64,000 bases of DNA from Lama glama. Lineage: Eukaryota. Each line of letters starts with the position of its first letter. Position 1 is the first letter of the stretch. Below the pieces are notes generated by a model. The model was not told the origin of the DNA and ran no database searches. It worked only from the letters and a program-made list of their open reading frames with translations. Shown here piece by piece: positions 1-28,798 of the stretch. Position numbers and translations under genes: made by a program. The stretch covers positions 1,674,001 through 1,738,000 of the forward strand of contig CM052820.1 of the NCBI GenBank assembly GCA_028534125.1, read 5' to 3'.

Positions 1-1676
1 GCAGCTCTTCCCCCACCACCCAGACCTCAGCCGAGTCCACACGGGGCTTCCTCAACCACTGGTCCGTTCGCGGGCTGAGGGGAGAGGGCGCCCCTGGGAG
101 CCAGGGCGGCGCAGGGTCCGGCCCCTGTGGAAGGGCCCTGTCAGGGGCTGCCTGGAAGCGGTGAAGCAGGGCCATGTGGCATCAGGAGATGGTGTGTGGG
201 TGGGGCGGTGGCAACAGGGTCACCAGGGGCCAGCCTCAGACCGGCCGTGCACTGGGACTGCCCTGCAGGCCATTTCACGTCCAAAGTTCCTGGCTGAGTG
301 ACGATACCACCAGGTCATCAGCAGGGCAGTCAGACTCTGCCCCTTGTCTGTCCTCCCACGTCCCCTGCCCAAGGACCCCAGACTCCTAGTGTGACTCACG
401 CTCTCCCCATCCACTCCTGGCCCCCATCCACCCCAGGGCCCACCCTGGCCTCCCTCAGCCGCTGCGTGAGGGACAAGCTGGCTGCCCCCACCCTGACCCT
501 CTGGTGCCACACAGCAGCCATTTCACTGTCTGAAATTACTCTGTTCAGTTACCTATTTCTTGCCCTCCCTCCCACCCCCTAACACTTGGGCAGGAAACTC
601 CAAAAGACCGAAGGGTCTGTCCTGCCCTCTGGTCCTAGTGAATTCAGAGGTGCCTGTCCTGCAAAAGAGGACCCAGTGAGGGACTCACCGCTCCCTGCGC
701 CAGCTGCAGCTGCTGGCCCTCCCGACGTGCGGGGCCCAGTGCAACATGGAAACACGGGGCTGCGGCCGAGACAGCGCGTTTAACTGATGGGCGGGTGCTC
801 GACCTTCCGGCGCAGGGCTGGGGTGGGCCCTTCCCCAGCCGGTTCTGGGGCTTTCTCCTGCGTGGTGGCAGTGATGGAGAGGGTGGCAGCCTCTAGTCTG
901 GGGACAGCTCATGCTGGAGTGAGTCGCAGACTCCACCGCAGAAGCACAGTGGCCCACTGTCCGGCTGTTCATTCATAAGCCCGTTTCCTGAAATCTGTGA
1001 AACGTCATCGCCCAGACGGCTCCCGAGGATGCAGGCGGGTTGCCACCTGCCTGCGATAAGGTCACGGTCACACTGCCACGTGCAGGGCTGTGCAGCCACA
1101 CGCCCCGCCAGTCGCCCCTGACTGCACTGGAGGTCCCGCCGGGGCTGAGCCCAGTGACCAGAGCTACTGCTTGTGCCTCTTGAGGGGGTGGGGCCGCTAG
1201 AAGCAGAGCTACAGAAGGGTTGGGAGGCGCGGCTCACAGCACGTGGATGCCGAGGGTCTCCACAGACGGGGTGCCTGCTCCCGGGGCCCCGGGGCGCTTC
1301 CCCTAAAGGCCATCAGACGGGGGCAGATAAGACCATTCACTCTCTCCCCCAACCTAAAAATTCTGCCCCATCCCCAGCACCTGCCCCTCCTCGGGCAGGA
1401 GCACGTCCATGAGTCGCAGGCTGGCTCTTCACTGTCCCTCACCTCCCCTGCACTGATTTTCCTGACGTTTTAGTTCTCTCCACGGCTGTCACAGCATAAC
1501 ACCTCGTGCAGTTGTAAGCCCGAACTGTTTAACAGTCAAGGGGACACAGGGACACACACACAGAGGTCAGCCTGTCTGGAAGCAACACTGCTTTGTCCTG
1601 GCACCACGTCCAGCAGCCGGCGGGGAAAGCAGACATCCAGACACCCAGGATGCTCAGGACGTGGTGGTGGCAGCAG

Positions 1677-1768
1677 GATGGGATGGGACGGTACAGGACA
1701 GGATGGGACAGGACGGGATGGGACAAGACGGGACGGGATGGGACAGGACAGGACAAGACAGGACGGGA
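1677..1768. repeat. Degenerate pentanucleotide microsatellite (GGGAC/GGGAT/AGGAC units)
   Basis: About 18 tandem 5-bp units (ggatg ggatg ggacg gtaca ggaca ggatg ...). It produces the repetitive ORF translations around 1529-1902. Confidence 0.9.
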
Positions 1769-2504
1769 TCAGGTGCAGAAAGCACCCCCGGGCCTGTGCT
1801 CGCAGCTGCTCTTCCTGGAACCCTGCAAGGGCAGCAAAGGAAACTTCAAATAAAAATGGAGGTGCTGAAAGAAGGCACCTGAAGAGAAAGGGGAGAAAAT
1901 GAAACGACGGGAGGCCCGACATCAAGTCAATGCAAAGCCCAGGAGTGGACAGAACAGAGTGGGGAAGATCGCTGACAGGTGATTCAAGGCGTGAAGCTCC
2001 ATCAGGAGACCTGGTGTCCCGGAGGGGGCGCCGTGGGCTCGCCGTGGCCCCAGACGGCCAAGGCCCACAGCCCTTCACTGGGGGATCCGGGAAACTTTCA
2101 GAGCCAGGGAGGGGCGGGGGGCACCAAGGGCCAGCCTTGCGAGTGGCGTCAGATTCTGCAGCAGCTACTCAGGGCAGGAGAAGACCTGAAAGTCGTGAAG
2201 AGAAGTGACTTCTAGACCCAACCCTGTTCTCTGCCAAGTGGGAGCCGGAATAAACACATTTACCAGAGACTCAAAAAACTCATATTCTGTGTGCGATTTC
2301 TCAGGAAGCTCGGGGAGCTGCACAACCAAGGACGAAGGAACACGTGGAGTCTGGGGACGAGGCAGGGCCCCCCCGCCAGGAGACCGCCAAGGGGAGGGGC
2401 CCAGGGGCCCAGGGGCCCGGCTGGGGCCGTGGGGACAGGAGCGAGTCTTCCCGGCCTGAGCGGAGCCTCTGGCCCGCCTGCCCTGGAGCTGAAGCAAAAG
2501 CAGG

Positions 2505-2629
2505 CACAGAGACACACGGGGAACAGAGCCAGTGGTTTACAGTGACTCTAAATGGAGTAGAACCTTTAAAAATTGTACACCTGAATCTTATATAATATCA
2601 TATATCAACTATACATCAATTAAAAAAAA
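2505..2629 (+). mobile_element. LINE-1 extreme 3' end fragment with A-tail
   Basis: 'ctctaaatggagtagaacctttaaaaattgtacacctgaatcttatataatatcatatatcaactatacatcaattaaaaaaaa' resembles the laurasiatherian L1 3' UTR terminus. Recognised from memory, not searched. Confidence 0.7.
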
Positions 2630-2859
2630 TCCAGGCTCCCAGAAAACTAAGCAAATGAAAAAAGCGATCAACTTCAGGATAAAGGAAAGTTACACAGGAA
2701 AGGAAGGGCAGCCCCGGTCACCATGGGTTCAAGCTGCACTTTCTGTGCCTTGTGGTCACGACACAGGGCCAGGCAGGGCCCAGCAGGGCGGGGCAGGGCC
2801 GCTGTTCCTGGCATGAGCCTTGTGAGGTTGTTTGATTTATGCACATTTGTTTACTCTGA

Positions 2860-3830
2860 TAATGACAAAAGAGAACTCTAGAAAGACAAATGACAGGCTG
2901 GAGTATGATCTTCGCAGGACACACGACACAGGATAGTACATAACATATAAAGAGTGTCCACAAAGCAACGAGAAAACAGTGCCTGGGAAAAAGGACGGGG
3001 GAACAGCCACCAAACACCACACAGGGAGGGACCCTCCCCGTGTGACCGGCGTGGTTCCAGACGCTGGGCACGGGAACGTGCTGGACCAGAAAGACAGCCC
3101 GGCTCAAGGGCACGGGCCACCCGGCACCCACAGGAGTGAGACACAGCGGTTTGGCAGCATGGCACGAAGCTCACTTTTGAGGAGGGAAGATGAAAGATAA
3201 AGTCACCCAAACTTTCCTAACAGTGGCAGAACTGCTCGTGGAAACGTCAGAGATCCCGACTTCTGCGTCAGGCTGGCTACAGTGAGCCTGAAGCACCCCG
3301 TCACCCAGGGGACGAGGGCCTCTCGTGAGCCGCTGGTGGGATGCGGTGTGCTCGTTCTTGTAGGGTGCGCAGCCTCTTTTGAGCTGGCAGTCCCATTTTT
3401 AGGATGCTATCCTCCAGAAACAGTGAACAGAGGTACCCATGTTTGCTGGCAAAATAAAAACCAGGAAACAGTTACAACTTCTACGATACTTGCACACTGG
3501 AGTCATATGGAAAAAGGCGCTGATAGTCACACACTGAAACGGCTGGTGTCCGTGGTATAACATTGGATAGAGAATAAAGTAACAGGCCGAAATGCAAAGC
3601 CAGTGTTTTGGTGGAGAAAAAGACCACACACATATCTCACACACACAGACACACACCTCCATGCACAGGCACAGGCACAGGCACAGATGGTACCTGGACA
3701 GACAGATGCCAAACCGATCACAGGAGAGCCTCCCGGAAGTCGGACTCAGGACGTGTGCCTTTTGCAGATGTTTTAATTTGTTATAAGTATGCATTGCTTT
3801 CGTGAATTTTTTTAGATTAAAAAAGCACTT
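2860..3830 (+). mobile_element. Old, decayed LINE-1 (L1ME-like) remnants
   Basis: A-rich patches such as 'gaaagacaaatgacaggctggagtatgatcttcgca...atataaagagtgtccacaaagcaacgagaaaa' resemble the 3' part of L1 ORF2. Boundaries are approximate. Includes short (CA)n and (GCACAG)n repeats at about 3625-3686. Confidence 0.45.
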
Positions 3831-6752
3831 TACGTGAAGCTTAACGCTGGAACCGTCTACACCCTCTTCCTGCTAAATCAATCGACTCAGTGTCTTGTCT
3901 GAGATGGCCGTCCAGCTCAGATACGAATGAGCGTATCTGGGAAAGGCCAGGTCCACATCACACCGGGGATGTCCCACACGAGAAGCAGTTTGAGTCTGAC
4001 AGACATCAAGGTTTGAAGGGAGCCCTTCTCGATGTCATAGCTGCCTGGTACTTAACCAAACTCGCCATGTCTAGGCGTTCCTTTGGAAAAGCACAACACA
4101 GCCTTTTTAAAAACCTCCTGAATACTCTCTTATCCGTGTTTTCAAAGAGCACAAAGTTGACGGAAGACAGCCAAGCACGAAGGCCCCAGTGGTGGCGGGA
4201 AGCTCGGGGACCAGCGCTGTGGGCACCGCAGCGAACGTGCTTCTCCCCGCCAGGCAGCTCAGAAAGGGGAGGCGCCCTGGCCCGGCCCAGCAGGAGCCGC
4301 GGGCATCCGTCCCACGACATCTGACGGCACGAGACACACCCAAGTGAAGCCGGGCTCGGGCTGACGTTGTCCCTAACTGCCACTTCCACAGACCACAGAG
4401 CCTGTCGCAAATCGCACAGCCCGGTCCAGCCCGGGCGGTGCCAGCCCTGCTGCCCAGGGTACAGATGCGCACACCCGCTTGGCGAGGCTGTCCGCCCTGG
4501 CGCCCAGGCGGCGAGGCCCAGGCTGACGGCACAGCTCTTCCTCCCCAAGTCGCGCAGCTTCAGCCAGCGAGGGAGAAACCTGGCACGTTTCCCGCATCGC
4601 GACGATCACCTGACATTCCCCACGGAGAACGCAAGCCCGGCCACCACTGCTGGGAGGTGCAGGGCGGGGTGAGCGTCCTAGAAGGAGGGCTAGGGGATCC
4701 CCGGCTGCAGAAGTGAATTCAGGACAGAGGTGAATGTTTTTGGCGCCCAGCTCCATGCAAGGACCACTCAGGAGCTCCACACCCCAAACCAGCCCGGCCT
4801 TCTCCAGCCCACAGTTGGCGGAGGCCTGCCGTCAGAGAAGGAGCTCTCGACAAGGCTGAGGTGAGCGGCTTCCCACTGGGCATAAAGCAAACGGCCAGCA
4901 CAACTGCGCCGACGCCAGCCAGGCCTGCAGCACGAGCCAGCGCAGAGCCGGCGGCCACAGAAGCCGGAGATTAGCGGGGACCTCGGGGACCAGATCGTGG
5001 GCCACGTGGCTGGCGGGGAGCAGCAGGTCGGAGCCAGCGTGGGTTCACGGTCCTGCATCCAGAGTCCCCGGGGCCCTGCGACAGATGAGCTGTGCCAGCT
5101 CTGGGACCGGTGAGGGGGGAGGGTCTCCAGGCGATGCTGACTGAGTCTGCCTGGGCCAGGCAGGGCCAGAGCGAACGCCTGCCCGTGGACAGGACCCTGT
5201 CCGACCGTGAGTGGGGTGTGGGCACGTGCGGGGAGCTGCTCGGGGCCAGACGATGTTCTGACTTCTCACGGGGCCTCAGTGGGAAGGGACAGACGTGCTT
5301 TCCCGCAAGGAAGCCCCAGCGAGAGGCGGACGGCCCTGCTGGGCAGCCCGGCGCTCAGCCCCGCACGTCCATCTCCCACGTCCACTGCCCCGGGCGCCAC
5401 CTGGCCACCCCCAGGGCTGGGGGATATGCCGCACACTCAGTGCACCCACTTCATGGTGAGGAGCTGAGGCCAGGGAGAGGCTGTCATGGGGCACGGAGCT
5501 GCAGACCCGGGGGAGCCCCACCCGAGCGGCCGGACCGTGACCCACTGGCCACAAGGCGAGCAACCCCTGGCTCCACTCCCCGGGGCAGGCGCGGTCTCCG
5601 TCTCCTCGCCCCGGGTCTCCCTCCCAGCACAGCGCCCCGCTTGCTGACTTGGGTTTGGGGGTCACAGCCTGAGTCTGCAGGATCAGGGCGTGCAGGGCAG
5701 TGCAGGGGAGCCGCCCCCATCACAACAGAACCTATTTCTGTGGAGCCTGCGGTGTGTCTCTGGGTAAAACCCACGGCCCTTCTCAGCAAACATGAGTGAC
5801 AGCCACACACTGACACCGGAGAGACGAAGACAGACGACAGGCTTTCACCTTCCCCAGTAAAGGGTCCAGGTCCAGGGCCCAAATGCAGCCCCGCCTGCAT
5901 GCTGAGGTCCAGCCCGAGGGACGCAGCCGCCCCCCATGCACCTGGGATGTCGGTCAGCCCTACTGAGGCTGAACTGTAATCTCCCCGTTCACTTCCAGCC
6001 CTCGATTCCAGGTTTGCGACACCAAGCCCTCCCTGGAGCACAGCTCTGCCAACTGAGAGGCCACACGGCTGCTGTCTTTGGGACGGGGCAGCAGGGGCGT
6101 CCCCAGCCCCATCTCAACACCCATCGCTTGGGTGAAGCTGCTTTAAAGCATTTCTGTCTGGAATGGACCAAACCCCTTCAGATCAAACAAACTTTGTGCT
6201 TATGAGAAGCAGCTGTGTAGCAGACCCACTCCCACCTAGCAGGGCCGGGACCCCCACAGCACCCTCAGCCGCGGGCTCCAGCTGCCGCCCCCAGACCAGC
6301 GTGCCCTTCATCCACCAGCAGCCAGGCCCTCACCGCTCGGTCACTCCTTCTCTGGCCCCTGCCCTTCTGGCCACCCCAGTGCACTGCCCACCCAATCTGA
6401 TCTGTCTTCAAAGTCACCACCCACTTACACCGTCACCACTAGAGAAAGTCCAAGAGACCCCAGGCGGGCAGCCTGCTTGTGTCTAAACACCTTCTCCTTC
6501 TGGTTTGTGGCAGAACCCCTCCAGGCCACCCTAAGACGTCTCTGCAGGAGGGCAGAGTGTTTCTTCCTTGTACAAATGTCCCTCCCAATCTGGAAACCCT
6601 GGCTGCTCCCCGCTGAGGGCCAAACCCTGACTGGCTCTCTCGCTGAAGGCACTTGAGGCCCGTCACGCAGGGCTGCCGTGTCCCCTGCTCACCAAGGGCC
6701 CCCGCGGACTGCGACCGAGCAGAGCACACCGCCAAAAGGGATGCTAGCGTCA

Positions 6753-7172
<420 letters not shown>

Positions 7173-10100
7173 TCAGCCCAGCTAGGTGGCCGGCCTCCGA
7201 GGCAAACTGGCCTTCTCTCTGGGGCAAGACTGAAATGAAATAAAACCAACCGTGAACCAGCGGACACGTGCTGGCCGCAGCCTCTGCTGACCGCGGGCCT
7301 GCGGTCCTGGCGCCGGGGCTCTGCCCTGCCCCTTCCCCTCGGGCAGCTCCTGACCTGGTCGGTTCTGAGGCTACACGGGGGTCACCACCGGCCACAGAGG
7401 GGCCTCCCCTGGGGCGCGGAGGGCAGAGGGAGATGGGGGCTCCAGGTGTAGGGAACACAGGAGCGTCAGAGGCAGCTGAGACCTGGTGGGGGCGCTGCGG
7501 GGACAAGTGCTGGTGGTGTCAGGGTCCTCAAGGGCAGAAGCCACGTGGAGACGTCCCTTCAGCATAAAGTATACAGTCTGCATCCGTGCCTTCACAGGAC
7601 AGTCACCCCAGCCATCTCCCCTTCCTCGGGAATGAGGGGTGACAGCAACCACACTGCCCTGGGAGCTGAGCCAGGACATTTACTGCCTTTATGAACAGTG
7701 GGCACAGCTCAAAAATCCTTACGATGAGTAGACTGGGCAGCGGTCAGGAGGGGCTTGGGGGGGGGTCCGGCCTCGGAATGGGGGGGGGCTGGCTGCACTC
7801 AGGAGAGCCTGCAGCGACTTCCTTTGACGGGGCCGCCCGCTGAGCCTTGCCGGAGGCACTGGAGGTGTAACGAAATCTGTGAGTCTTTAAACTGTGTAAT
7901 CTGCTTAATGGCTTGAAACCAATTTGCCAACTTGCTTATTTGGAATTTGTTAGACTATTTATTTGAATACACAGTACTCCACATCCGTGCACCTGGTGTT
8001 ATTTGAATTAAGAGTGTGAGCTCTTAAATGCTTACAGGTGGATATTGAAATATTGGAGAGCAAACTGGTGCAGAGAACGTGATGCTCAGAGAGCAGTGCA
8101 ACGACTGCAGCCCGTGTGCCCCATGAGAAGTGCTCAGGGAGCCCAGAGAACAGCCCAGCGGGGTGGTGTCCCCGCCGCCGCCACCACCCAGGGCACACCG
8201 CCTCCATCAGGACATGCTCAGGGATGCCAGGGCGGGAGCTCAGGGTGGGACAGGCCACCCTGCTGCTGGCTGCACCCTCGCCAGCGGGTTCTACCAGGCC
8301 TCAGGGAGCCACTCCCGCACAATCTCACTGAAGGTCTGAGGCAACTCTCTATAATTCATCACATCTTCAGGTCCTGTCCTCCGTGCAGCACGGCCTTGGC
8401 CAGTTTCGCGCCAAGCTATAACCTGAGAAAAACTTTACTTTCTCTTTCGTAAGAAACACAGAAAAAGGCTCTGTGTGTTACGCGATTTGAAAACACAGTG
8501 ATTACTAATGAAATGTTATTGTAGACACTAATCACCATTGTCGTTCCACATTAGTGGTGGAGTCTGTTTGTGATTAAGCCAGAAGCTGGAAAAGCTAGTT
8601 GTCTGAGATCTAACAGGCTTTCTCTTCTGTTCTGGTCCCTTGCGCACCGAGGCCGTCAGTGTTCAGGTCCTTACTTTCTCGTCCAGACTCAAAATGAGTG
8701 AGATGAGGAGGCAGCTGGCGGGGCTCCGCGTGGTGTGCTGCCCGAGAGCCCTGGGCAGGCCTGTTCCGCACGGTCTAGGGGAGAATTCCAGGCATCGGGA
8801 GCAGGCGGCCGGACCAACCCAGCTGGTACCATCACAGGTGACTGACGCCAGGCTTCACAAGAGTGACTCAGGTCACGCACAGCAGCCTAACTCCCCCGAG
8901 CCGGGCAAAGCCAGGGAAGACAGCTCATCACGACGTGACGGTGATGCTCAGGCCTCCTTGAGAGGCCAAGAGAAGGGCTTCTCGGGGACAACACACATCG
9001 TCTGCCCTCCGGTGGGACAGCCACGCCAGTCACACAGCCCGGGGCTGACACCTGCCCCAGCGAGCAAGGGTCTGGGCGTGTGAGCCCAAGTCAACCCTGT
9101 GCCTGGCTGCATGTGCCCTCACACTCACCCCCCCACGCATCCCACCCCCGTGCGCCCCCCACACCCAGGACTCACCCCATCCCACCCGCACGCACAGTCA
9201 CCCACTCCCACGTGCGTGCGCGCGCACACCCACACACACACCCCCTCTGCAGGGCCGTCTTCTGCCCACCTCCGCCCTGACCATCACCGACCTTCCACGC
9301 TTCCGACCCCTCGTCCAGCCCGGGGAGGGCGGCTCTGTCGTACATCTGCCGCCATCCTGGTTAACTGAAAGGGCATCTTTTCTTAACGACAACCCCTTCT
9401 GACGAAGACTGCAGCGCAAACATGCCTTGTTTCCTCTCTAAAGGTTACTTTGACTGCAATACGGAATAATGCTAGACGCAGACTCGCCTGTTCAAATTCT
9501 GTCAACAGCTGGCCTTTCCCGTTACAGATTTATCCAAGTGACTTAAATAAAACTTTCCATCACTCACACCAGCCTTGGCCAACAGCAAGCTACGCGAGCG
9601 GCTGTAAACGTTACCGTGAGCACAGAGAAAGCGGCGGCAGGAGCCCCAGTCTCCTCCTGCCCCTGCACACCCAGCATCCCGTTGTCTCAACGCGCAGCCT
9701 GTCTGCAAGCGTCCACGAGACAGTCACAGTTGCGTTTCACGCCGAGGCTCGAGGTCCAGCGTGCCTGATGGTGGCAGCTCGCCTCAGTTTCCACCCCGGT
9801 TTCAATGCTCAGAAGCCAAGCGTGGCTGGGGGCTGCCGCAGTAGACAGCGCAGACTCGCACCGAGTCTAAAGGGGACACTTCTGATGCGTGTCCACCGTG
9901 GAACCGCCACTCCGGTAACGACCCAGGATGGTGTCGTCCCCACTGGCAGCGCCCTCTGCCCTCTGGGAGGAACCTCCACCCCTTTCTCCTGTGTTTTCTT
10001 CTGGAAGTTTTAACAATCCAGCTTTCACGTTCAGTCTACGGCATTTAAGCTGGTTCTTTCCAGCAAAGTTTTCCCACCACGCAGCAAGAGACTGTGTGGT

Positions 10101-12147
10101 TCACTCCATGATTTGGTCTGGTTTGGGGGACAAAACAAGAAAGCTGCTAAAAGCCATCCCCATTCCAGCCTGCTCACCCCAACCCCTCGGGGAAGAGGGC
10201 TCTCCCCACCAAATGCTAAACCCAGACAAGCAAGCCTCATCCAGGCCGGGGATGTGATCGAGGCCGCCCTACTCCCCAGGAGCAGCCGTGTCAGTCCCTC
10301 CTGACCCTGGGAAGCCCTGCAGGCCCCCATCTCCCCCACCTCGCCTCCCAGGTGCACCTTGTTCACACTCCTCCCCAAAGCCCTTCTCAATTCCAACCTC
10401 TCAGGGCGGTGCCTGCAGCTCTGCCCAGGGCCACCCACTCCCTGGGAGCCCCAGGACTAGGGGGACGCACTTTCCCCACCGACGGGCTCCACCCTGCCCA
10501 CCACCTGCAAGCCCATCATCATGGCCTCCCTTCCTGCCAGCCCGGCCCCCCACGACCTACTCATGGGGGGTTCTGGCACTGGCCACTCCAGTCTTCCCCT
10601 CATGTCACTGTGGCCCCCATCCAAGAGCTCCAGTGTGGTCAACCACAACCCCGGCTCCCCCCTACCCTCTCTGGGCCCGCAGCCTTCGTACGGCTACCGC
10701 TGTAGCCCCCTCGCTGGTGGCGCCTCTCAGGACAGCTCCCTCTTCTGAAATGGCTCCTGGGTGCTTCCTCGCCCGCTGATCACATCTTCTGAGTGTTCCC
10801 TCCTGCGTCCCAACCCCTCCCACCCAGGACCTGGGAGCCCCTCCCCTCACTGCCGTACAGGCTGACTCCGGGGTCCCCTCCTCCACCCCAGCTTCTTTCC
10901 TGCCGCCTTCAGCTCAACAGCACGGACAACATCTCAACAGCTACCTAACCTACTGCGTTTGGGGCATCAGGCTGCACCCCCCAAAGGGGAACAATGGAGC
11001 TTCCGTGCAGCAAATCCCAGGGGGCTGGCACAGGTGGAGAGGCCGAGAATCAGTGTGACCTCAACGTGGGGTCTCCGGGTGCGCTGCCAGCAGAACTAAC
11101 CATGAACCCCCCAACTCTCTGTCGCTCTCGGGTGCGCGGCTGTCATTTACGGCTGTTCAGGGACCACGGTGGCCTTCACTGCCTGGGCGGTGGAGCTGCA
11201 CACACCAGCACCCTGCTTGCTGTGAGCACAGCTCACGTGTCTGTGCGACGTGCAGCGGCCGCAGACACTCGGGGGGAGACAGTCTTGGAATAAAGTGCCT
11301 TTCAGGTCGTTTCAGGACCCCCGGTGTCGCCTGCTGGAGCATGAGGGCTCGTTTCAACGGGATTCGGCGGCATTTCTGTACAAACCGCCGTCCACTTTGG
11401 GGCCCCAGAGGGCTACACTTTTCCCCCAGTGAAATGAATGATAATTATCTTTGATTTATGAAAACCACCCTATGATGTTTCTTCCAGAATGAAATTACTC
11501 TCGAAAGCAGCAGAAACTTATATTCGAAGCAAAACCCTGTGAGGCACCTGACCAGGTTTAAAGCCACATGGCTTGGTGACTCCATTTCAAACTCAGCCGG
11601 TGTCAATGGCCAGCCTCTGAGCTGCGCGAGCCTGGAGGACGGCCCCTCCGCCCACGGCATCCTCCATCAGGTAAAGGCCCGTGGAACACGCACCCACTCT
11701 CTTCAGTTCTGAGCATGAACAAGGCACTTCCGTGGTCTCTGTGGCTGACGAGGCGCCGGGAGGGGTTCTCAGTATATAAACAATGAAAATAGCGCAGGAA
11801 CCTTTGACTTGCTTAAGAACCAACACTGGGCAGAAACCCAGGAGGTGCACACGGACAATCCAGACCAGAGCTTCGGTTTAGGAGGCAGCTTTTGTGGCCA
11901 AAATACAGCCTGAGAAGCCGAGAAAATGGTCAGGCACCAGCCCACGAGCACCCACATCTGGGCGACGCCTCGTGCATTCACCTCCTGACCACTCGGGTCC
12001 CACCAGGTGCTGCCGGGCCCAGGGCTGGGGGGCGTGGTTTCTCACTCCACGCCCTCCCACCTGCCTTACAGGCGACGAGCTGAGTGCCACTCAAATCCAC
12101 CCCATCACGCGTGCCGGGCAGTGGGAGGGGACCCGCCCCTGCACTTA

Positions 12148-12447
<300 letters not shown>

Positions 12448-13410
12448 GAGAACCTTCTTCCCAGGAACGGCTTTACATACCTGCCTCCCATTTAAAATGC
12501 AGGTGGAAGCAGCAGAAAAACCTACTGTACTGAACACAAACCCCGCCACAGGGAGCTGTAATATGCACACATAAAAGAAGGTCTGAATTAGGCTTCTTTC
12601 TCACTGCAGCAAAGAGACAGAGCAGAGCTTCTGTGCAAAGCGAAGCATCGCAGCCCCGAGCAGCGAGAAAGGGACGGAGCGTCCCCGGGGCAGGCAGGAC
12701 AAGGCTCCCGCAAAGGAGGCAGCCAGGCCCCCGGGAACCCTTTCAGGGATGTCCCTGTTCCTTCCAGCCTACAGCTACCTACTCAGGCGAAGCACACGTC
12801 ACCAGGCTGGACTGAAGCTGACAGCTCGTGTTTCGTGGTTTTCTTGTGGGAGTGGCGGTGACTCAACTCATTAAAGAAAACTGGCAAACTTGAGAAACAG
12901 ACACACAGAGACCCGGAACCCACCACCCAAATCCAAGGTCTGCTGGCACCAAATCTGCTTTCCGTAGAGCTGCCATCGGACCACACAGCACCTGGGACCC
13001 ATCCTTCCGTCAGAAACGAGGTGAGAACCTCCCTGTCGTCACACAGACTGCAAACAGCATTTTTAATGGTGGGCAAAAGCTTCATGAGGTGAGCAAAGTG
13101 TACTTCACAAAACCGTTTCCTGACTGGAGAGCTCTTCAGACGTTGCCCCTGTGGTTCTGTGGGAACCATGCTGCACCAGCATCTTTGAGGAGCTGTCACC
13201 GACCGCGTTTAGGAGCGTTTCCTCAGGAGAGATCAGCGAAGTGACTACGTCTAACGAACACAGCGTACAGCCCTGGGTGCATCTTCTGAGCCGTTCTCCA
13301 AAACGCCTCCACACGGTACCTCTGTCTCTGCCTAGCACTGCTCGGAAGCCCCCGACCCCGCGTCTCCACCCGCGCCCGGGAGCGCCCCCCCCACCGCGTC
13401 CTCACGCGCA

Positions 13411-13910
13411 NNNNNNNNNNNNNNNNNNNNNNNNNNNNNNNNNNNNNNNNNNNNNNNNNNNNNNNNNNNNNNNNNNNNNNNNNNNNNNNNNNNNNNNNNN
13501 NNNNNNNNNNNNNNNNNNNNNNNNNNNNNNNNNNNNNNNNNNNNNNNNNNNNNNNNNNNNNNNNNNNNNNNNNNNNNNNNNNNNNNNNNNNNNNNNNNNN
13601 NNNNNNNNNNNNNNNNNNNNNNNNNNNNNNNNNNNNNNNNNNNNNNNNNNNNNNNNNNNNNNNNNNNNNNNNNNNNNNNNNNNNNNNNNNNNNNNNNNNN
13701 NNNNNNNNNNNNNNNNNNNNNNNNNNNNNNNNNNNNNNNNNNNNNNNNNNNNNNNNNNNNNNNNNNNNNNNNNNNNNNNNNNNNNNNNNNNNNNNNNNNN
13801 NNNNNNNNNNNNNNNNNNNNNNNNNNNNNNNNNNNNNNNNNNNNNNNNNNNNNNNNNNNNNNNNNNNNNNNNNNNNNNNNNNNNNNNNNNNNNNNNNNNN
13901 NNNNNNNNNN
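13411..13910. other. Assembly gap (500 N) at the orientation switch of the HDAC4 exons
   Basis: Round-number N run. Exons are on the - strand to its left and the + strand to its right. Confidence 0.99.
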
Positions 13911-16699
13911 GAGGTCAGTGCCCAGAGCTCCCATCCCTGTCCGGTGTTTTTGGCCAGCCCAGAGGTGGAGCCAAAGAGCAGTTTCCATATGCCCTTGAAT
14001 CCTGTCAGGGCGGCATTTCAGAAGTGTCTCGGGAACCGTGAGCTTCAGGCCACAGGGCCAGTGCCCCTTGCCTCTGCCTGCAGACCCCAGGTGCCCTGCA
14101 GGTGCAGGGGGATGTGGGTGCACAGAGCTTCAGGGAGAAGGGGTGGGGGCCGCTCTGACCAGGAGGAGGGCCCCGGGCTGGCTGCAGGGCGTGCCCCTGA
14201 CTGGACTTGGGTTGGGGCGGCGTTCAGGGCAGCAAGTTCCAGAACCTTCGCTCCATATGTTCACCTCTCCTGATTTCGCTCCCTCTGCCCATCCCACGGG
14301 TGTCTTTGGGGCTCCTGCCTCCTGCCTGTCTGGGTCCGGCCCCCAGCCAAGGGCGCTGCCCCCCGTACTGCCCAGGATGGGCAGGTGCTGACCAGTACTG
14401 GGAAGGATGCAGGAATTTCATGCAGCCGAGCACATGGGGAAGCCGGCTCCACACCCAGTTCCCGGGAACCAAGCAGTGGTGCCTGCCGCCTCCTGCTGAG
14501 GACGGTCCTGCTGAACAGGGGTTTCTCCTGGTTTTTTTTTTAAGCACCCTCTAACTTGCAGGAGGTTGTAATGTATTCAACGCGGTTATTTGCTTTCCTC
14601 TTACGCGTTCAGGCACGAACCCCGCCCTCCCAGAGGCTGACAGCTCTTGGCCGGCGTCCGCAGGCGCACGTGCATGCCAAGCATTTTCATTTCAAATTTC
14701 TAGACGCTTAATGTGTCAGCAGATTTTTGGAATCCAAAGTTACTGCTGGAAATGATTTTGCACCCCTGCCTCTAGTTTGCTTAATCCATATTCTTTTTCT
14801 TTACGTCTCTTTCTTTTATGACCTGTCCACTTCAACCTACCTGTTTAAATACTTGTTTATAGATGGTTGAGTTTTAACAGTCCTTCTCTGTAAGACTGAG
14901 GTCATAGCTGAGGTCTACCTGGAATTAGCCTTAGAACCTGGCCTAAAAGCTGCTTCCTGGACCGAGACGTAAATGGTATCTGTGGCTTGTTGATAGTGGC
15001 CGCAGATCTTGAGTTTATTTAACTTCGGCAGTTACCTACCTAATGGTTCATGTTGTCAAGATGCCTTATTCAGGTGGATGCCGGTTTAAATTGTGTGTTA
15101 ATTTTTACAAATCACATGGTAAAGTCAGTTCAGCTCCTGCAAGTTCATAGAAGATGGAAAAGGAGTCACAGGAATGTGAAGGGTGCAGTTTTCATGGGAG
15201 AGGCTCACTGTACTCACAGGGGGCTCTTTGAGAATTCGATCACGTCCTTTGTGGATTTCAAGTAGAAATCCTTAGAACAGGACAGTTCCCTGAGCGCTTC
15301 TGTGACGCCGAGGCCAAGGCCGAGGCTGGCCGCTCCACGTCCTCTGATCCAGAGGCAGCGTGGGGGCCTCACACAGGAGGGGGTCCTTGTGTGGGAGGGG
15401 ACCACTGGCCTGGCTCTGCACCCCCTCCCGCTGGACAGAGAGAAGCTCAGCACCCCCCACCTCCCTCATGCGGAGGAAGCTGGGCTCCCCTAGCCCGGAG
15501 ACAGTCTCCCGGAGGAGCCGCGCCGTCCGGTGCAGAAAGCCAAGTGTGGTCGGAGGCATGCCGCGGGCGCGCTGACCCGGCCCGGACTCTCCATGGAGCC
15601 CTGGGCAGCTGAGCATTTTCATAATGGGGCAGGTGGAGGCGGCCAACACCGGAAACATGGACAAGTCAACACACCAGGCGATTCCCAGAAGGCTGCTTTA
15701 TTTCCAAAAATAAATTAGGTTTAAAAAAACAAGACAGGCTGGGTTGTAAAGAGGAAATGATAACTTTGCAAATGTCGGATGTTTGCTTATTTTGTTCCTG
15801 GACAATTATAATACAGCGAAACCGTGCTTTCCTTGGCAGTGTCAGTCACTTTCTCTAAATCATAGCTTGCCGGTGCTTTTGTCTAGGAGAAGGCGACTTC
15901 TTAAGTAGCCCTCTAGGCGTTACAATTCAGCGTGATGTGTGGCCAAACATCTGTCCGGGTGAGGGCGCACTCAGTTTCCTCCCCAGTGAAGAGAGCCGGT
16001 CTTTCTGTTTTCCCTGATGGCACGAGGACGGCGTTCATCAGGTGTGTGTTTCCAGATGACGCCGAGTATGACAGCATCAGAGCCACCTGGGGACCGTGCA
16101 GGGCTCGGAACGTCGATGCCCACGCCGGGAAGGTAGTCCCTCCGTCCTTCATCGGAGTGAACGGCGGCGCCTCCTGGCTGGGGCTGCGGCCCACACGCCG
16201 CTGTTTACAGTAACTCAGGATGACTTTCGACTCATATTTTTTTTACCTTGCAGATGAAATTTTAAAGCACCCACAGCATTTCTCATCCTTAACTATTGAG
16301 TCCACTGTGAGAAGCAGGAGAAAACTGGTCCAGGGCCGTTACCAGTGTTGTCTCCGTACACCACCAGCGAGCGCTGGGACGGGCCACCTGCTCGTCCTCT
16401 TCTTTGTGTGCTCTTGGTCCTGCACGTGTCCCTGAGGGTCTCCTGAGGAGGGGACCCTGCGTGAATGAAACAGTGTTCTTATAGCAAAGAATGTCATTTT
16501 AGTGACAAAACGATGTGAAATACTGCAGTATTCAAGTCCTTGGAGGATGCTGCCTGACCACACACAGTAAATAAGGTCCCGAGTAACCGGCACAGCTTTC
16601 CCCAACCCCCCGAGCATCCCCGTGTGTAAACACGTGCCCTCCCCGACTTCCCCGGCACGTGCGCGCGCGCCCCTGGTCAGGTCTGTCTGCATCTGGCCG

Positions 16700-16915
16700 C
16701 TTCCTCAGAACACATCCTGCAAGAGGAGTTGGTCTCTAGGATCAAACGTTAGGTCAGTTTCTCAGGCTTCAGACGTGGACTGCCAAACTGTCCTGCAGAA
16801 AGAGCGGGCCCGTGTATAACCCACCTGGCAGTGCGCTTCTGCTTCTCTGGGTTAAGATGCTGGAGTCACTTGAGAATCTTTGCCAACTTGATAGGTTCTT
16901 AAATATGTGTTTAGA
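16700..16915 (-). mobile_element. Old LINE-1 (L1ME-like) remnant
   Basis: 'ggactgccaaactgtcctgcagaaagagcgggcccgtgtataacccacctggcagtg' resembles the antisense L1 motif 'tattgccaaattgctctccagaaaggttgtaccaatttacactcccaccagcagtg' as recalled. Confidence 0.45.
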
Positions 16916-16926
16916 TTTTTAGAGAT

Positions 16927-17112
16927 GTTTTTGTTTTTATTTTTATTTTTTAATATATTTTAGTTGAAGTTTAGTCAGTTTACAGTGCTGTGTCGGTTGC
17001 TAGTGGACAGCACGGCGACTCAGCCGTACGGGCGCACACGCATTTGTTTCCGTGTTCTTTTTAACCGTAACTCACTACAAGATGGTGAGAGCAGCTCCCT
17101 GTGCTCTGCAGC
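16927..17112 (-). mobile_element. LINE-1 3' end fragment with T-rich tail on the + strand, strongly GC-shifted
   Basis: 'tagttgaagtttagtcagtttacagtg...agctccctgtgctctgcag' aligns by eye to the reverse complement of the L1 end at 59440-59600 in this window. Confidence 0.8.
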
Positions 17113-17666
17113 GCGGAGATGTTTTCAGGTCACGGGTGACGCTGAGTCTTTTTTCCCCCTGACTTTCGTCCCCATGTTGGTTCCTCTTTGCCATCACTTT
17201 CCTCAAATTGCTGTTAGATTTGCACGCTCTCTACATGCTGCTTTTGCGCCACGCGTGCCCGACTCTGGCGTCACCCTTGTTTGCCTTTTATGTCGGGGTT
17301 TTTTTCATCGGTGTTTTCCCCCCTAGTTCCTACCTCCCGTGTTATGTTTGGAAGGACGACTCGACCCCAGGAGTGTATTTTAAGCACATTGTCATAGATC
17401 TCATCCTGAGAGCTTGCTGATGAATGAGTGATCTGAACCAAAGCAAACAAGAGTGTGATGGGTGCAGATTTCCGTGCCCGTGGCCGGCTTTGAAATGTCG
17501 CACTCGCCTGCGTGCTGTAGCTTGCTACGTACTTTTGCCCCGGGTGTTCCACAACTCGGCGCGGGCCGCCCTGCAGGCCTCCCTGCAGGTGTTTCCCCTG
17601 GTGTGTGTTGCCCGGGCGTGGCCGGGGCAGACCCCCCGTGACGGCCCCCATGCGCTCTGTCTCCAG

Positions 17667-17783
17667 GCCAGCTTGGCGCACCGACTGGTGACCCGGGAAG
17701 GCTCCGTGGGCCCGCTGCCCCTCTACACGTCACCCTCCTTGCCCAACATCACGCTGGGACTTCCTGCCACCGGCCCGTCTGCT
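17667..17783 (+). CDS. HDAC4: HDAC4 exon 10 (117 bp): [39 protein letters not shown]
   Basis: ctccag| acceptor and |gtaagt donor. Contains PSLPNI, the PxLPxI ankyrin-repeat (ANKRA2/RFXANK) binding motif. Confidence 0.96.
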
Positions 17784-17870: not shown

Positions 17871-18069
17871 GGGGCGGCAGGCCAGCAGGAAGCTGAGAGG
17901 CTGACCCTCCCAGCCCTCCAGCAGCGCCTCTCTCTGTTTCCCGGCACCCATCTCGCCCCCTACCTGAGCACGGCGCCCCTGGAGCGGGACGCGGGGGCGG
18001 CGCACAGCTCCCTCCTGCAGCACATGGTCCTCCTGGAGCAGCCGCCCGCACAGACGCCCCTCGTCACAG
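17871..18069 (+). CDS. HDAC4: HDAC4 exon 11 (199 bp): [25 protein letters not shown]...[16 protein letters not shown]
   Basis: ctgcag| acceptor and CAG|gtgagt donor; in frame with exon 10. Confidence 0.95.
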
Positions 18070-21000
18070 GTGAGTGCCGGCCGGGCCACGGAGGGAGGGC
18101 CGCAGGCTGCCGTTTCCACCCCCAGGGCTCCCGTGCGCCGCCCCCTCGCGGGAGCGTGTGCTCGGATGAACCAGGTCTACCTGCAGCGCCAGGTACAGCA
18201 CAGAGTGTCTGATGTACCTTCTGTTCAATTTCTGAGAGGAGGTTAGCAGCCCCGGCGATATGTCTGCCGTTTGGGTCAAGTTGGACACGCGATGGGCACA
18301 GTGTGGATTCTGGTAGGTGTTCGATTTCTATGGGCAGTAAAACTTCTTCCCATGTGCCCTGTCTAAGGGGTGGTTCTATTCAGAAAACAGCAGGGAATTT
18401 GTTGTGAAATTCACACAGCAGCAACAGCGTAGAAGTGTTACACAACTGTAGGGTTTGCTGTGACACAAGGAGGGCCCTGCTGTAGGGCTGTCATCCCCCT
18501 CCCAGGCCCCACCCACAGCTGGGGGTCAGCTTCCCCCCAGACTTTATGAAGGTTGGCTGAGCTCCAAGTACCCATGGGGCAACCCTGACCCCCAGGCCCT
18601 CTTCAGCCGCTCTCTGTGATGGTCTCAGTGGTTAGGTTACTCTTGGTTTTATCATTCTTACCCTCCCTTACTTCCCCACCTGCCCGTCTGTCCTTAACAG
18701 GGTCTCGTGGGCCCTTCCCTGACCCCAGGTCTCTCTGGGGTCACCCTGCACCCTGGGGGAAGAACCTCCAACAGCGTCCCCATTCTCCATCCATCCTCCA
18801 GGCCCAAGGAGCCCTTCTGCTGTCCAGCCTGGTGCAGGCCGGTGTGGGAGCATCAGTGTGTGGCCATGAACATTGAAAGTTAAAAGCACAGGGAAAATGT
18901 GGTTTTCTAGCCCTACGTGCGGCTCATCCAGTGCCCCCCGCACCCACCCGGTGTTCAGTGCATGCTGGGTACACAGTGGGGATTTCTGCGGTTGAACTGC
19001 GTGAAAGGCAGCTCGTGTCTAAGCAGAATCAGGAAGGGGCACTCACTGACTGCTGGCCTTTGGCCGGCTGTCTGAGGCTCCCGAGTGGTCAGCCCACAGC
19101 TGCCCTCTTGCTGATGGTCACTATGGATGGACAGTGTCAGGGCTTGTCATTTCACAAGTGCTTTGGAAGCAAGTCCCTGTGGGAGGAGCGGCCAGCCCGG
19201 GTCCAGCGGGGAGCAAGGGTGTGGGGTCTCAGGCCCACGTCCCCTCTCCCCGCAGGTCCACGTGGTGCTCACAGTGGCTCCCGCATCCACAGTATTAGCT
19301 GCCCCAGCCAGGCCCTCAACAGACAGTGGTTGTGTTCTCAGATCTTCTGAAGAGAGCAGAGTGCCCTGAAACAGTCCCAGGGTAGAGTCTCTGAGCAGCC
19401 GGCCAGGGCAGTGCGCACAGATCTGCCACCGTTTGGCAGAAGGAAGCTGTGTGTGCAGCTCATTGTGCTGCTCCCGTGGCTGGACACACGTGGGGTCCAG
19501 GCAGCCCAGACGAGTGCAGCGCTCCTGTGGCCAGCAAGCAGAGCTTTCAGACCAGTGTCTCCAACATGCCAGGCCCCAGGGAGGCCGGCCCCCGAAGACC
19601 CACTGAGAGCTTTGTAGTTGGGGCGCGCAGAGGAGAGGGCTAGCCGCGAGGGCACGGGGACAGGGTGCGGTCCAGGAAGGCTTCCCAGGCAAGGTGCGTC
19701 TTCCCCGAGACCCTGCTCAGGAGTCACAGCTGAGTGGAGGGGGCGGGCCGGCAGCAGGAGCCAGTACTGCCCAGTGGGTGTGACGTGTCGTCCGTTCTTC
19801 CAGCCCCTGGCCACTCACCGGCGCTGTGGTGTGGCCGTGTAGCTGGGACCTGGTTAGCCGTCCCAGAGCTCCCGTGGAAGCTGATGGTCCAAGGGGGCCC
19901 GGCTGGGTTTCTGCACAGCGCCCAGGCCGTGCTTCTGTGCAGCCGGCATTGCAGACCTCTGGCCGCGTTCGTCTCACCTGAAGAGCCTTGAAGACTTTCA
20001 CCACAGCAGGGAGGGCAGTGGGCACTCCACAGGGAACGGTCAGGTCTTGGGCCACGGGAGTCACTCCTCTTGTGTGGATTCCTCTGCTTGGACAGAACCC
20101 GCAGCGCCAAGGCCGGCGCTTCAGAACCGGGCCCAGAACCCAGAGCAACTTGGCTTTTCAGCATCTTTTCTCTAACCTAAGTATGGACCTGGTGGAGGTG
20201 TCTCCGCAGTGCCTTTGTTTGCAGCTTCACTTCATGTGAATGAAGTCAGCCCAGGTGGCTGAGAGAAGGCCAGGTGCTCACTCAGGAGCTGTCATAGTCA
20301 TGGCTACCACCACCACGTGTACATCGCAGACCCCCAGGGCAACTGGCCCACCCTCATCCCCCGGGCAGGAGCAGGGGGACCCTGGGGGCCTTGGCTTTGG
20401 TGCCATGGGCCGGAGGAGCAGAAGCCACAGCTCAGCCTCCCGGCAGCTAAGCACCAGGGGCGCGGCTCCAGGGCAGCCCGGCCTCCCTGCCCAGAGCAGG
20501 TCCCTGCGTCCCACCTCGCTCAGCTCTGCACAGCCGGCCTCTGCTGGCAGCTGGGCAGCTGGGACAGAATTCGATCCAAACCTAATCGCCCTTATACTTG
20601 AAAGTTTTACAGTGTGGACCGAAACCGACCAGTTCAGAGTTATCATCCAAACCTCTTGTCAGTGACCTAAGGGTCATCTTTAGGTTCTGAACCAGAAACT
20701 ACCTGGCCAGCTGATGGGTTTGCTCCAGAAAGTCAGGACGTCCGGTGTTCGGTGATGCTGATCAGTACACTTTTGCCCGAGTGTGGTGGCCCCACAGCGT
20801 TACACTCCAGAGGAACTAGAGTGAAGTCAGAGTGAGCAGGATGAGGGTGGGAGGTGATGTGGAGCCAGAAGCGGACCGGGGTCCGGCCCAGGCAGCTCCG
20901 TGTCAGACAAGGCGCCCACGGGCTCTGGGTCTGAAAGCTAGGCCCTTCCACCGTCGGCCCGCGTCCCCGTGGGGACAGTGGCCTGCGTCCTCAGGGAGGT

Positions 21001-22819
21001 GTCTGCCCTGCGAGAAGGCAGGGGTCTCTGCACGCCGAGCTGCTGGGAGCCTCAGCGCGGGGCTGGGGGGCTCCCAGTGGGCCCCACACCAGCGCGGAAA
21101 CCCGAGGCCCCTCCTCACCGCTCCTCTGAGCTCCTTGTTTTCCATCCCACGTCAGCCCTGGAGGGTGATCTCTGTGGAACTGGGGCTTCCTTCCCCAGAC
21201 CCAGGAGGGGCTTCTCTGGGTGCGAGGCAGGGTCAGCCCGCACACCCCGCCCGGGGTCTGCTCCCCGGCACTTACCGAGCCTTCGCTCTCGTGACGCTGA
21301 AGCTTTGAAAACGACTCTGTTTTCTGAGACGGGAGCTCGTCAGTGACTGAGTAGCCTTTTAATCCCATGAGGGCAGTGTTGTGACATCCGTCTTTTCTCC
21401 GGGAAATAGTTCAATCCCTGCGATGCCTCGATCAGCAGTTGCTGAAATGCCTTCTTTAGGGTGAGTCTGTGGGTTTTTAGATTGTTCTAGAAAACTTGGG
21501 AGAGACTGAGTCTTCCTTTTGAGTTACTCGTTGTAATTTAGTAGCCAAGCAGACAGTAAAACTGAAGATCACTTATCCTTCCAGAAAGTTACTGGATTGT
21601 GTAAAAAGTGATGATGGTTTAGGAGACGATGGTTGATTTGCTTTTCGAAAAGAGAGCAAGGGACAGTTCTGCTAAGGCTGGATCTTTTTTTTTGTTTGCA
21701 CACGGAGTAGTATTTTTAATTTAGAAGTAGCCCCCACGAGAGAACCAGGAAAAGACTGAGAGTCAGTACCCACCAGGGGTCTCAGGCTCGACAAAGCATG
21801 ATGAGATATTCCCACTGGCTTTGGAGTCCCTTGGAGGAAGACAGGAGCCACCGCCTGTCAGCAGGGCCGCTGGGGCAGGTGCCACGTTGCAGGCATCGTC
21901 CACTCGGCGCAGCCGACAGCTGGGATTGGTCTGCTCGTTTGTCGTCTCCCCAAGTCAGACGCCCTGCTCTGGGGTCACATCAGTCTGAGGGATGTGTGGG
22001 GATTCGCCCCACCAGGTGGTCAGGGAACGGTGTGTTAGACCCTTTTGCCCTCAGAACCAGGGAAAAATGGTAAACTAAACGAACAATTTTTAAAGCAAAA
22101 AGACTGGTGGTTGGAAGGATACAGAAAAAAAAAAGTGTTTAACTTCCTGGGTTCACTGAAGAGGTTGCATTTAAAATAAGATGCAAAAGCAGGTTAACAG
22201 CAAGGGCATTGTCCCCTGTCAATACGGACACTCTGTCCAGGTCCAGCGAAGCCGCCGTGCTCGTGTGCAGCAGGTGGGTGTGTATGTTGGCAAAACTTCT
22301 CCATAAACTCGTGCAGAGACTTTGACCATGTGCATCAGGATTTGTTAAAGTGTTAATGCCCTCTTGATGTGTAAAACCGAGGCTTTAAGAGACCCTGGAA
22401 ATGGTTTGACTCGTGAGGACAGGTTCCTTCTTCACCAGACAGTTTCCTTGGAGGTCAGGGCAGAGCTCGCCTGCGGGTCCTCCAGAGCCGGGGCCGCCTT
22501 CCTCAGCCGGGCCCTGGCCAGCCTGCCTGCCCGCAGCGCTGCTCAGAGCCACGCCTTCCCGGGCCAGGGCCCCGCTTGGAGGCTTGGATCCCGTTTGCAG
22601 CGTGGGCCTGGCTGTCAGGAGACAGTGGCCTCCGAGTGAGCGTCTCTGCACCCGAGCCGAGCTCGGGGCATCAGCACGCCTGGAGCAAGGCCGGCGGGCC
22701 GCAGGGATCGGTGCCGGCCGGCGGGGGCAGTCTTGTGGTCCGCCAGCCACTCAGCAGCCCTCCCTGCCTCCCCTCTTCCCCTCCTCCCTCTGCCGCCTTT
22801 TCCTCCGTGTTATCTTCAG

Positions 22820-23058
22820 GCTGGTGTCTTTCAGGCCTGGGCGCGCTGCCCCTGCACGCACAGCCCCTGGTGGGGGCGGAGCGCGTGTCCCCGTCTGTGC
22901 ACAAGCTGCGGCCGCACCGCCCGCTGGGGCGCACCCAGTCGGCACCCCTGCCCCAGAACGCCCCGGGCCTGCAGCACCTGGTGGTCCAGCAGCAGCACCA
23001 GCAATTCCTGGAGAAGCACAAGCAGCAGTTCCAGCAGCAGCAGCTGCACGTGAGCAAG
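22820..23058 (+). CDS. HDAC4: HDAC4 exon 12 (239 bp, or 224 bp from the second acceptor at 22835): [GWCLS][10 protein letters not shown]...RTQSAP...QQQQLHVSK
   Basis: Two ttcag acceptors 15 nt apart and AAG|gtgggt donor. Contains the RTQSAP 14-3-3 site (S467 equivalent) and a Gln-rich tract. Confidence 0.95.
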
Positions 23059-23649
23059 GTGGGTCTGCGGGCGCGACGGCCCCCTCTGTCCTAGAGGGGG
23101 GCAGGAGACGGGGCGGGGGGGGACCCTGGCCGCAGCACACGGCAGGGCCAGGAAGCTGTGTACGTGGGCTCGGGGCGAGCCAGGCGAGCGGCACAGGCCC
23201 TGCTCAGCAGTGGGGGGGCAGCTGGAACGTGTTGGGTGTGTGCGCCGTCTATGTCCCTGGGGGATGTGCGCGGCTCGCTCGGCCTTGTGTTCTTGAGTTT
23301 CTTAAGGACATTACTCTTCTTAAGCAAACTCCCCTTTACGATGGCACAGAGCCCCCAGAGGACACTTTCCAAGCCCCTGTCACTTGCACTCTGCCTGCCT
23401 GTTGGAGTGACCGCATCAGGAGGGGTTTATGCCCAGGCGAGCCCTGGGGTCCATGTCCCTCCAAGGTCTGGGACGCCGCTCACACGGCCCACTCTCAACA
23501 GGAGGTAGTGGAAAGGTTAGTGTTGCCCTGCTGGGTGTGAAAGCAGGGAAATGGCGATCCTGAATCACGTTTCTCAGAGGCCGGCGTTTAAAGCAGAGCC
23601 TCTCTAATCAGAGAATGAGATGACCACGTTGCAAAGCGGTCCGACATGG

Positions 23650-24075
23650 TCAGCACGCCGCCCAGCAACTCCGGTCCCAGTGTCTGCCCCGGAGAGCGGA
23701 GGGCACGGCGGCCGTCTCACGAAGGCTCGCCCCAGTGCAGCTCACGACAGGGGACGGTGGGGCAGCCCAAGTGCCCGGCAGACGGCGGGTGGCAAACAGC
23801 CCGTGGCACGTCCATGCAATGGGACACTATTCAGCCACAAAAACTAAATAAACACCTCGTGTGGATTCCACGTAGATGAAGCGTCCAGAACAGGCAGGTT
23901 CAGAGACAGAAAGGAGGTCGGTGGTTGCCCACAGCTGGGGCTACCATGCTTCCCCTTGAGGCGCTGAAATGCTCTGAGGTGGAGTCTGGTGGTGGTGGCA
24001 CGGCGGTATGGTACAATTTGAAAGCGTGACTTTCATGATGTGCGAATTACATCTGCGTACAGCTGTCAACAAAAG
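23650..24075 (+). mobile_element. Old LINE-1 (L1MB/L1MC-like) ORF2 end and 3' UTR fragment, GC-shifted
   Basis: 'gtggcacgtccatgcaatgggacactattcagccacaaaaa', 'tccagaacaggcaggttcagagacagaaag...gtggttgcc' and 'atgtgcgaattacatctg' match recalled L1M 3' motifs. Confidence 0.7.
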
Positions 24076-27000: not shown

Positions 27001-27329
27001 TGAAGCTGCAGGGAAGAGGAGGGGACACTCCCACCCAAGCTGACCCGAGAGGCCAGGGCCCCAGAAGGAGAGAGCAGTGTGCCCGGGCTGGTGGCCGCGC
27101 CCCTCCACGTGGGAGAGAGTGCTGTGGAGCAGAGATGGAAACCTCTGGGGCTCACATCAGCCCTTAAACCCTCATTCTTGTCTCTCCCAAAATGAAGTAG
27201 GAAGCAGCCCACAGACCAGGCTGCCTGATGGGGGACGAGCAGGAGCCTGAGGTCAGGGGGACCACGCACTCCAGAGATGCTTGAGACTGGCAGTGCTGGG
27301 CAGGCACGGAGTGGGGAGGGTCAGTGGGA

Positions 27330-27660
27330 GCTCAGGCTGCAGCTTAGCAGGGGCAGGAGAGTGGTTCACTCGCTGGGAAGGAGTCTGAGAGAAAGGAGAG
27401 GTTTGCAAGAAGCTGTGCTGAGTTCAGTATCGGGTCGTGCGTGCCGGTGCCCCAGGCATCCACATCGAGCCCGGATGTCCAGCAGGCCATTGGGTGATGG
27501 GTCTAGAAATGAGGGCGGTCTGGGCTGCGCACCTGCGTTTGGGGGTCACCAGCATGTGGAGCCTTCAGCAGAGAAGGGATCCCGTTGCCAAAGAGCTCAG
27601 TGTGCTGGGCAGCAGGCCCCAGGCAGAATGGGGACTGAGGAGTGAGCGGGCTGAGGGGCC
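27330..27660 (-). mobile_element. LINE-2 remnant
   Basis: 'tgagttcagt...ggatgtccagcaggccattgg...ggtctgggctg...tttgggggtcaccagcatgtgg' resembles antisense L2. Boundaries are approximate. Confidence 0.55.
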
Positions 27661-28147
27661 GCAGAGGGCCGGAGAGGCCGGCTGTCCCCCGTGGAGTGCT
27701 GGCAGCAAGCTCATCACACAGCCCGGACTTGGCAGCGAGTGCCAGGATGTGAGTTTCTGGTGGGGTGGCAGGTGGAGGAGAGACAGGCGGTGTTTCTCCC
27801 AGAGGCCATGGCCGTGAAGGAAGGAGGGTACTGTCAGCCTCCCCCTTCACGCCCAGGTGCAGCCGAGGGGTGACGCCCGTGACTCGCATTGTGCTTCGCT
27901 CTGCTTGGCACACAGGTGCCTGATAGCACGCGCCAAATGCTGGGCGGTGTGCCTCCTCAGCACCACGGACAGCGCCCGGCACCCACGCGGTGTGGGTGAG
28001 TAGAAGGGGCCTCGGCCCAGGATGAGCGCGTCCCTGGGTGACTGGTCCCTCTGTGTCTGAGATGAGGCTTTGTGACGTGCCTTCTCCTGTCGCGTCACCT
28101 CCCTCGCCCGGCTCACACCAGCTCCATCCGTTACCTCTGTGTTGCAG

Positions 28148-28405
28148 ATTATCCCCAAGCCAAGCGAGCCGGCCCGGCAGCCCGAGAGCCACCCTGAGGA
28201 GACGGAGGAGGAGCTGCGGGAACACCAGGCCCTCCTGGAGGAGCCCTTCCTGGACCGGCTCTCGGGGCAGAAGGAGGCGCTGGCACTGGCCGGGGTGCAG
28301 GTGAAGCAGGAGCCCCTCGAGAGTGACGACGAGGAGGCGGAGCCCCCCCGGGAGGCGGAGCCGGGCCAGCGGCAGCCCACCGAGCAGGAGCTGCTCTTCA
28401 GACAG
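28148..28405 (+). CDS. HDAC4: HDAC4 exon 13 (258 bp): [25 protein letters not shown]...[12 protein letters not shown]...ELLFRQ
   Basis: ttgcag| acceptor and CAG|gtgacc donor. Contains the VKQE SUMO consensus (K559 equivalent) at 28301-28312. Confidence 0.96.
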
Positions 28406-28698: not shown

Positions 28699-28798
28699 NN
28701 NNNNNNNNNNNNNNNNNNNNNNNNNNNNNNNNNNNNNNNNNNNNNNNNNNNNNNNNNNNNNNNNNNNNNNNNNNNNNNNNNNNNNNNNNNNNNNNNNN
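28699..28798. other. Assembly gap (100 N)
   Basis: N run. Confidence 0.99.

Follow-up and report, generated by a model that had tools for sequence, protein, structure and literature searches.

Exons of a camelid HDAC4 on opposite strands of one scaffold probably reflect a contig mis-oriented at an assembly gap

Errors in the order and orientation of contigs have been described for assemblies that are scaffolded with Hi-C contacts. According to the accessible part of one account, inversions and misjoins are commoner in Hi-C scaffolding, only long pieces are oriented reliably, and a run of 500 Ns is the default filler of both 3D-DNA and SALSA2 (PMC9292758). In a human benchmark of 3D-DNA, 4.3% of contigs were locally misoriented, short ones more often (PMC7672694, accessible text), and the available portions of both papers state that misorientation errors hinder gene prediction (PMC7672694; PMC9292758). 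A related phenomenon is false gene loss in short-read assemblies, in which GC-rich, G-run-type sequence is lost and genes appear with missing exons or breaks in their coding sequence (PMC9516821, in the portion available).

The locus described here, part of the histone deacetylase gene HDAC4 of a South American camelid, shares features with both. As in the excerpted descriptions of misoriented short Hi-C contigs, one piece of the gene appears to stand in the right order but in the wrong orientation, at a uniform 500-N join (PMC7672694; PMC9292758); in the present case the scaffolder is suggested by the gap size only, and the length of the piece and its far end lie outside the analysed window. 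As in the false gene losses, to the extent that the accessible text describes them, a GC-rich gene has missing exons and a probable break in its coding sequence (PMC9516821), but here a strand flip is visible as well. We conclude, with a probability of roughly 0.94, that the strand split is an assembly artefact produced by a short contig mis-oriented at a scaffolding gap, and that HDAC4 itself is intact and ordinary; the true adjacency of the pieces is what we infer from the evidence below.

HDAC4 exons on both strands of the window

The window, a stretch of 64,000 nucleotides to which all coordinates refer, is mammalian DNA with a GC content of about 60%. A protein search with exons 10-11 as the query returned HDAC4 records; the exon numbers used throughout are those that we take to be the human HDAC4 numbering. 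The reference for exon placement was the HDAC4 of the alpaca, Vicugna pacos (XP_072818074.1, hereafter P0005), a gene model derived from a different assembly and maybe a different species. The tblastn matches to this query lie at 12267-12148 and 7064-6945 on the minus strand for residues 165-244 and begin at 17664 on the plus strand for residues 326-992; exon ends were then set by phase chaining. Exon 6 (12149..12269, minus strand, 121 nt, phase 1 in and phase 2 out) encodes residues 165-203 together with split codons, and exon 7 (6944..7065, minus strand, 122 nt, phase 2 in and phase 1 out) encodes residues 205-244. Exon 10 (17667..17783, plus strand) starts in phase 0 and carries residues 327-365. 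Exons 11-24 (17871..62718, plus strand), 14 exons for residues 366-991, are ordered and in phase, and the series crosses four smaller gaps.

Canonical AG/GT ends and phase chaining were found in all 17 visible exons, and every one of their 738 whole codons matches P0005 exactly, from which it follows that nothing has decayed. The exons match HDAC4 records and the histone deacetylase domain is present in P0005, which identifies the gene as an HDAC4 orthologue: Pfam places PF00850 at residues 675-987 and PF12203 at residues 62-152, and the exons in the window cover residues 165-244 and 327-991. A first-pass annotation of this DNA had set exons 6-7 on the minus strand against exons 10-24 on the plus strand, had given exon 7 as ending in phase 1 and exon 10 as starting in phase 0, and had called the visible exons intact. 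The tblastn placements and phase-chained exons bear out the opposition of strands, the coordinates and phases are right, and the exact matches to P0005 and canonical splice sites of all 17 exons confirm the intactness.

As assembled, the HDAC4 coding sequence is not collinear, and exons 8-9 were not found in the window. The visible part of the left contig (1..13410) holds, on the minus strand, the end of intron 5, exon 6, intron 6, exon 7 and the start of intron 7; it has no N inside and extends leftward past the window edge.

Some further features of the gene can be recorded in passing. Exon 16 has two GT donors, at 35549 and 35564, which are 15 nt apart and in the same phase; P0005 takes the first, and other HDAC4 records align about five residues further than P0005. 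Intron 10 (17784-17870) measures 87 nt, a multiple of three, and has no in-frame stop, such that a single frame continues from exon 10 into exon 11, and 29 residues would be gained if the intron were retained. Short tandem arrays occupy 1674-1773 (5-nt period, intron 7) and 33701-33817 (14-nt and 43-nt periods, intron 15), neither of them near the 500-N gap.

The 500-N gap and the intronic strand skew around it

Five N gaps, of 500, 100, 100, 154 and 144 bases, interrupt the window. The strand switch coincides with the sole gap of 500 Ns (13411..13910), and the other four sit among ordered plus-strand exons. To the left of the 500-N gap the contig ends in GC-rich sequence (13350..13410), with 83% GC over the last 60 nt, when 1.4% of 6,272 windows of 60 nt reach 80%; G runs of 8, 5, 4, 3 and 3 lie on the minus strand in the last 110 nt before the gap, and this contig end is likely a short-read dropout site. 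The first-pass annotation had also pointed to a 500-N gap with a very GC-rich left flank, and both are present. The right contig, in turn, starts at 13911 in unique sequence of unremarkable composition (63% GC over 60 nt). The 1-kb flanks of the gap have no 12-mer in common in either orientation, and no inverted repeat was found at the gap by the repeat finder or by self-blastn, the content of the gap and the second breakpoint being out of view. One weak inverted pair was returned by the repeat finder, at 7479-7513 and 24832-24866 (74% over 35 nt). That one side of the gap holds a duplicate or inverted copy of the other was also considered and rejected, self-blastn giving two weak matches, neither of them at the gap.

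Elsewhere, 6 nt of C (57341-57346) stand isolated between a 100-N gap and the 154-N gap, as would be typical of a draft made from short reads. On both sides of the 144-N gap (58880-59300) the sequence presumably resembles, in one orientation, the 3' end of LINE-1 ORF2; a Pfam search of the two short pieces that flank this gap gave no match, and the gap was accordingly left out as a control.

The exons alone place the strand switch between 12270 and 17666, an interval that is narrowed by intronic skew. The sense strand of mammalian introns carries an excess of T and G, as stated in the accessible part of PMC2927911. Measured on the plus strand, intronic TA skew was -0.100 to the left of the gap (95% CI -0.151 to -0.050, 25 blocks) and +0.051 to its right (CI 0.027 to 0.076, 96 blocks). 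The difference was reached in 0 of 10,000 permutations, in a test that assumes independence of blocks which are not fully independent, and the bootstrap intervals do not overlap. The cumulative curve of (T+G)-(A+C) has its minimum at 13937, so that both this minimum and the uniform 500-N gap mark the switch, as a Hi-C misorientation should show; the minimum of the T-A curve lies at 13112. Given the T/G excess of sense strands, the change of sign at the gap indicates that the left piece evolved in minus-strand sense as far as the gap, and the right piece in plus-strand sense. This flip excludes an old rearrangement; skew and intact exons together do not tell a misjoin apart from an inversion of very recent date.

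Exons 8-9 and the start of the right contig

No tblastn match to exons 8-9 (P0005 residues 245-326) was obtained in the six frames of the window, the best E values being 0.52 (exon 8) and 0.029 (exon 9), and residues 245-326 have no 7-residue word in common with the translations of the window. As controls, exons 6 and 7 were recovered at E values of about 5e-25 and one 16-residue exon at 7e-8. The possibility of diverged or hidden copies of exons 8-9 inside the window was rejected, since tblastn was null for them while the controls reached 7e-8 or better. Exons 2-5 and 25-27 were not found in the window either (best tblastn E 0.003-0.47). The 'S246 site' and the NLS are, we assume, the HDAC4 features named for the exon 8-9 region; residue 246 of P0005 is Ser.

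The right contig opens on the plus strand with a Glu codon followed by a strong splice donor (13911..13919), which scores 10.45 on a donor weight matrix. This matrix was built from the 17 donors of the window, 13 of which score lower in leave-one-out comparison. A score of 10.45 is reached by 17 of the 125,910 nine-mers on both strands and by 5 if the Glu codon is required, and none of seven other scorable contig ends rises above 3.8 at the first four positions. Exon 9 ends in phase 0 with residue 326, for which P0005 and 137 of 155 records have Glu (16 were unscored and 2 have another residue). The motif was spotted by eye first, which makes the test post hoc; with about 60 positions near both ends allowed for, the probability of a chance occurrence is about 0.2%. 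Judged from its sequence, 13911-13919 most likely represents the last codon (Glu326) of exon 9 together with its donor. The contig break would then fall within exon 9, three bases before the donor, and intron 9 would extend from 13914 to 17666 (3,753 nt). A break inside exon 9 would mean that splicing could not repair the gene as drawn.

The first-pass annotation had reported that exons 8-9 could not be found and had placed exon 9 wholly on the minus strand to the left of position 1. The former statement holds in all six frames except that three exon 9 bases, followed by the donor, apparently stand at 13911-13919 on the plus strand; the latter is probably incorrect, as the last codon and donor of the exon open the right contig. 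A natural isoform that skips from exon 7 to exon 10 was also rejected, for such a join leaves out 245 nt and causes a frameshift. In one cat gene model (P0108), only exon 8 is missing and the frame is kept.

Related species provide an independent view of the same region. Over residues 200-370, which span exons 7-10, the sequences of P0005 and three camel records agree at 100% with no break, and these alpaca and camel records derive from chromosome-scale records of 97-105 Mb; the gene is thus collinear in independently assembled close relatives, at the level of protein models only. The records of Vicugna pacos (P0005) and Camelus (P0006-P0008) hold residues 245-326 in order, whereas the window holds at most residue 326. 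The spacing from the end of exon 7 to the end of exon 10 is identical in 115 of 120 mammalian records; among the other five, one is the cat model mentioned above and four were not scorable by the pattern used. Camel P0006 differs from P0005 at three residues, all in exons present in the window, and the window carries the alpaca state (742 vs 739 matches), which places the DNA in a South American camelid.

Sequencing runs were searched for words of the left flank (11500-13400). Among the 24 runs listed, 14 hold at least half of the words, with shares of 0.86-0.97; these come under 5 organism labels and from 6 studies, or amount to 13 runs and 5 studies without the possible source. Six RNA runs with shares of 0.07-0.19, and four runs with no share or no index, give no evidence for either orientation. 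The search establishes that the left-flank DNA is common and says nothing on its orientation.

Origin of the strand split

All of these observations can be brought together in a simple course of events. The sequence would have been broken twice, once in the G-run-rich stretch of intron 5 (now at 13410) and once inside exon 9 (now at 13911). A Hi-C scaffolder, to which the gap size alone points, may then have kept the order of the pieces, reversed the orientation of one and inserted its default 500 Ns. On the true chromosome, 13911 would follow the far (left) end of the piece and 13410 would follow intron 5. Unless they were unassembled, exon 8 and the bulk of exon 9 should be at this far end, and a second gap is expected at that end of the flipped piece, outside the window. 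The proposal in the first-pass annotation that the left contig is mis-oriented is supported by the gap size, the sign change of the skew, the exact exons, the unbroken relatives and the lack of an inverted repeat at the visible edges of the gap. In addition, a prior probability of misorientation of a few percent should far outweigh that of a genuine null allele in the animal chosen as reference.

Three other explanations were weighed. First, a recent intragenic inversion, most plausibly heterozygous, could extend from intron 5 to exon 9 over at least 13.4 kb, with the scaffolder having chosen the inverted allele; we regard this as very unlikely. The assembly graph would have been broken at both breakpoints, and the allele would be null, with exon 9 cut and exons 6-8 reversed. 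The sequence as it stands does switch strands, a recent event would leave the exons intact and the old skew in place, and the right break lies in unique, apparently exonic sequence, as a graph fork might give, although a coverage drop or a software cut would fit equally. However, the junction consists of uniform 500-N filler, with no breakpoint read through in continuous sequence, the visible flanks have neither an inverted repeat nor a common 12-mer, and the GC-rich G-run at the left end is enough to explain the break there. The decay expected of an old inversion is absent, with no substitution, stop or splice loss in the 17 exons, and the alpaca and camel records are unbroken. HDAC4 is, moreover, dosage sensitive: in the accessible part of a review, Hdac4-null mice show premature ossification and human haploinsufficiency causes brachydactyly type E (PMC8085601), which agrees with the earlier statement that HDAC4 loss is harmful in human and mouse. 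Literature listings on HDAC4 with camelids or inversions gave no such allele, and no HDAC4 inversion is described in the available portions of PMC10353722, PMC12154528 and PMC6598621. The judgement of the first-pass annotation that a real inversion is much less likely than misassembly is one that we share.

Second, a different assembly error could have produced the arrangement, a reading that we consider still less probable. The left piece could be in the wrong place or be a contig of a duplicate haplotype; alternatively, it could be the larger right piece that is misplaced and reversed, exons 8-9 being unassembled or located on a different scaffold. The window shows a single end of the left piece, and, as far as the accessible texts go, a 500-N gap carries no distance information (PMC9292758) and no type of false gene loss is commoner in short-read assemblies than missing exons and coding Ns (PMC9516821). 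On the other hand, both pieces hold neighbouring parts of one gene, an in-place flip restores their order in one step, and no HDAC4 exon is duplicated in the window. Finally, in Drosophila the mRNA of mod(mdg4) is trans-spliced from both strands, but a fixed, functional split HDAC4 of this kind, for which the intact exons on both strands are the sole support, is scarcely credible when the break apparently cuts exon 9 beyond repair by splicing, the closest records are unbroken and the switch falls at an N gap.

The two leading explanations differ in what they would mean. A real inversion would act as a null, like the human HDAC4 loss-of-function alleles of brachydactyly type E covered by the accessible part of the review (PMC8085601), although no real allele is shown here; were it true, a South American camelid would carry a naturally occurring null of a skeletal regulator that is sensitive to dosage, and the human haploinsufficiency syndrome would have a model. 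If the strand split is an artefact, as we favour, its value is for curation only: annotation and gene-loss screens would call HDAC4 split or lost in this assembly, and one flip of the piece that ends at 13410 probably repairs the gene.
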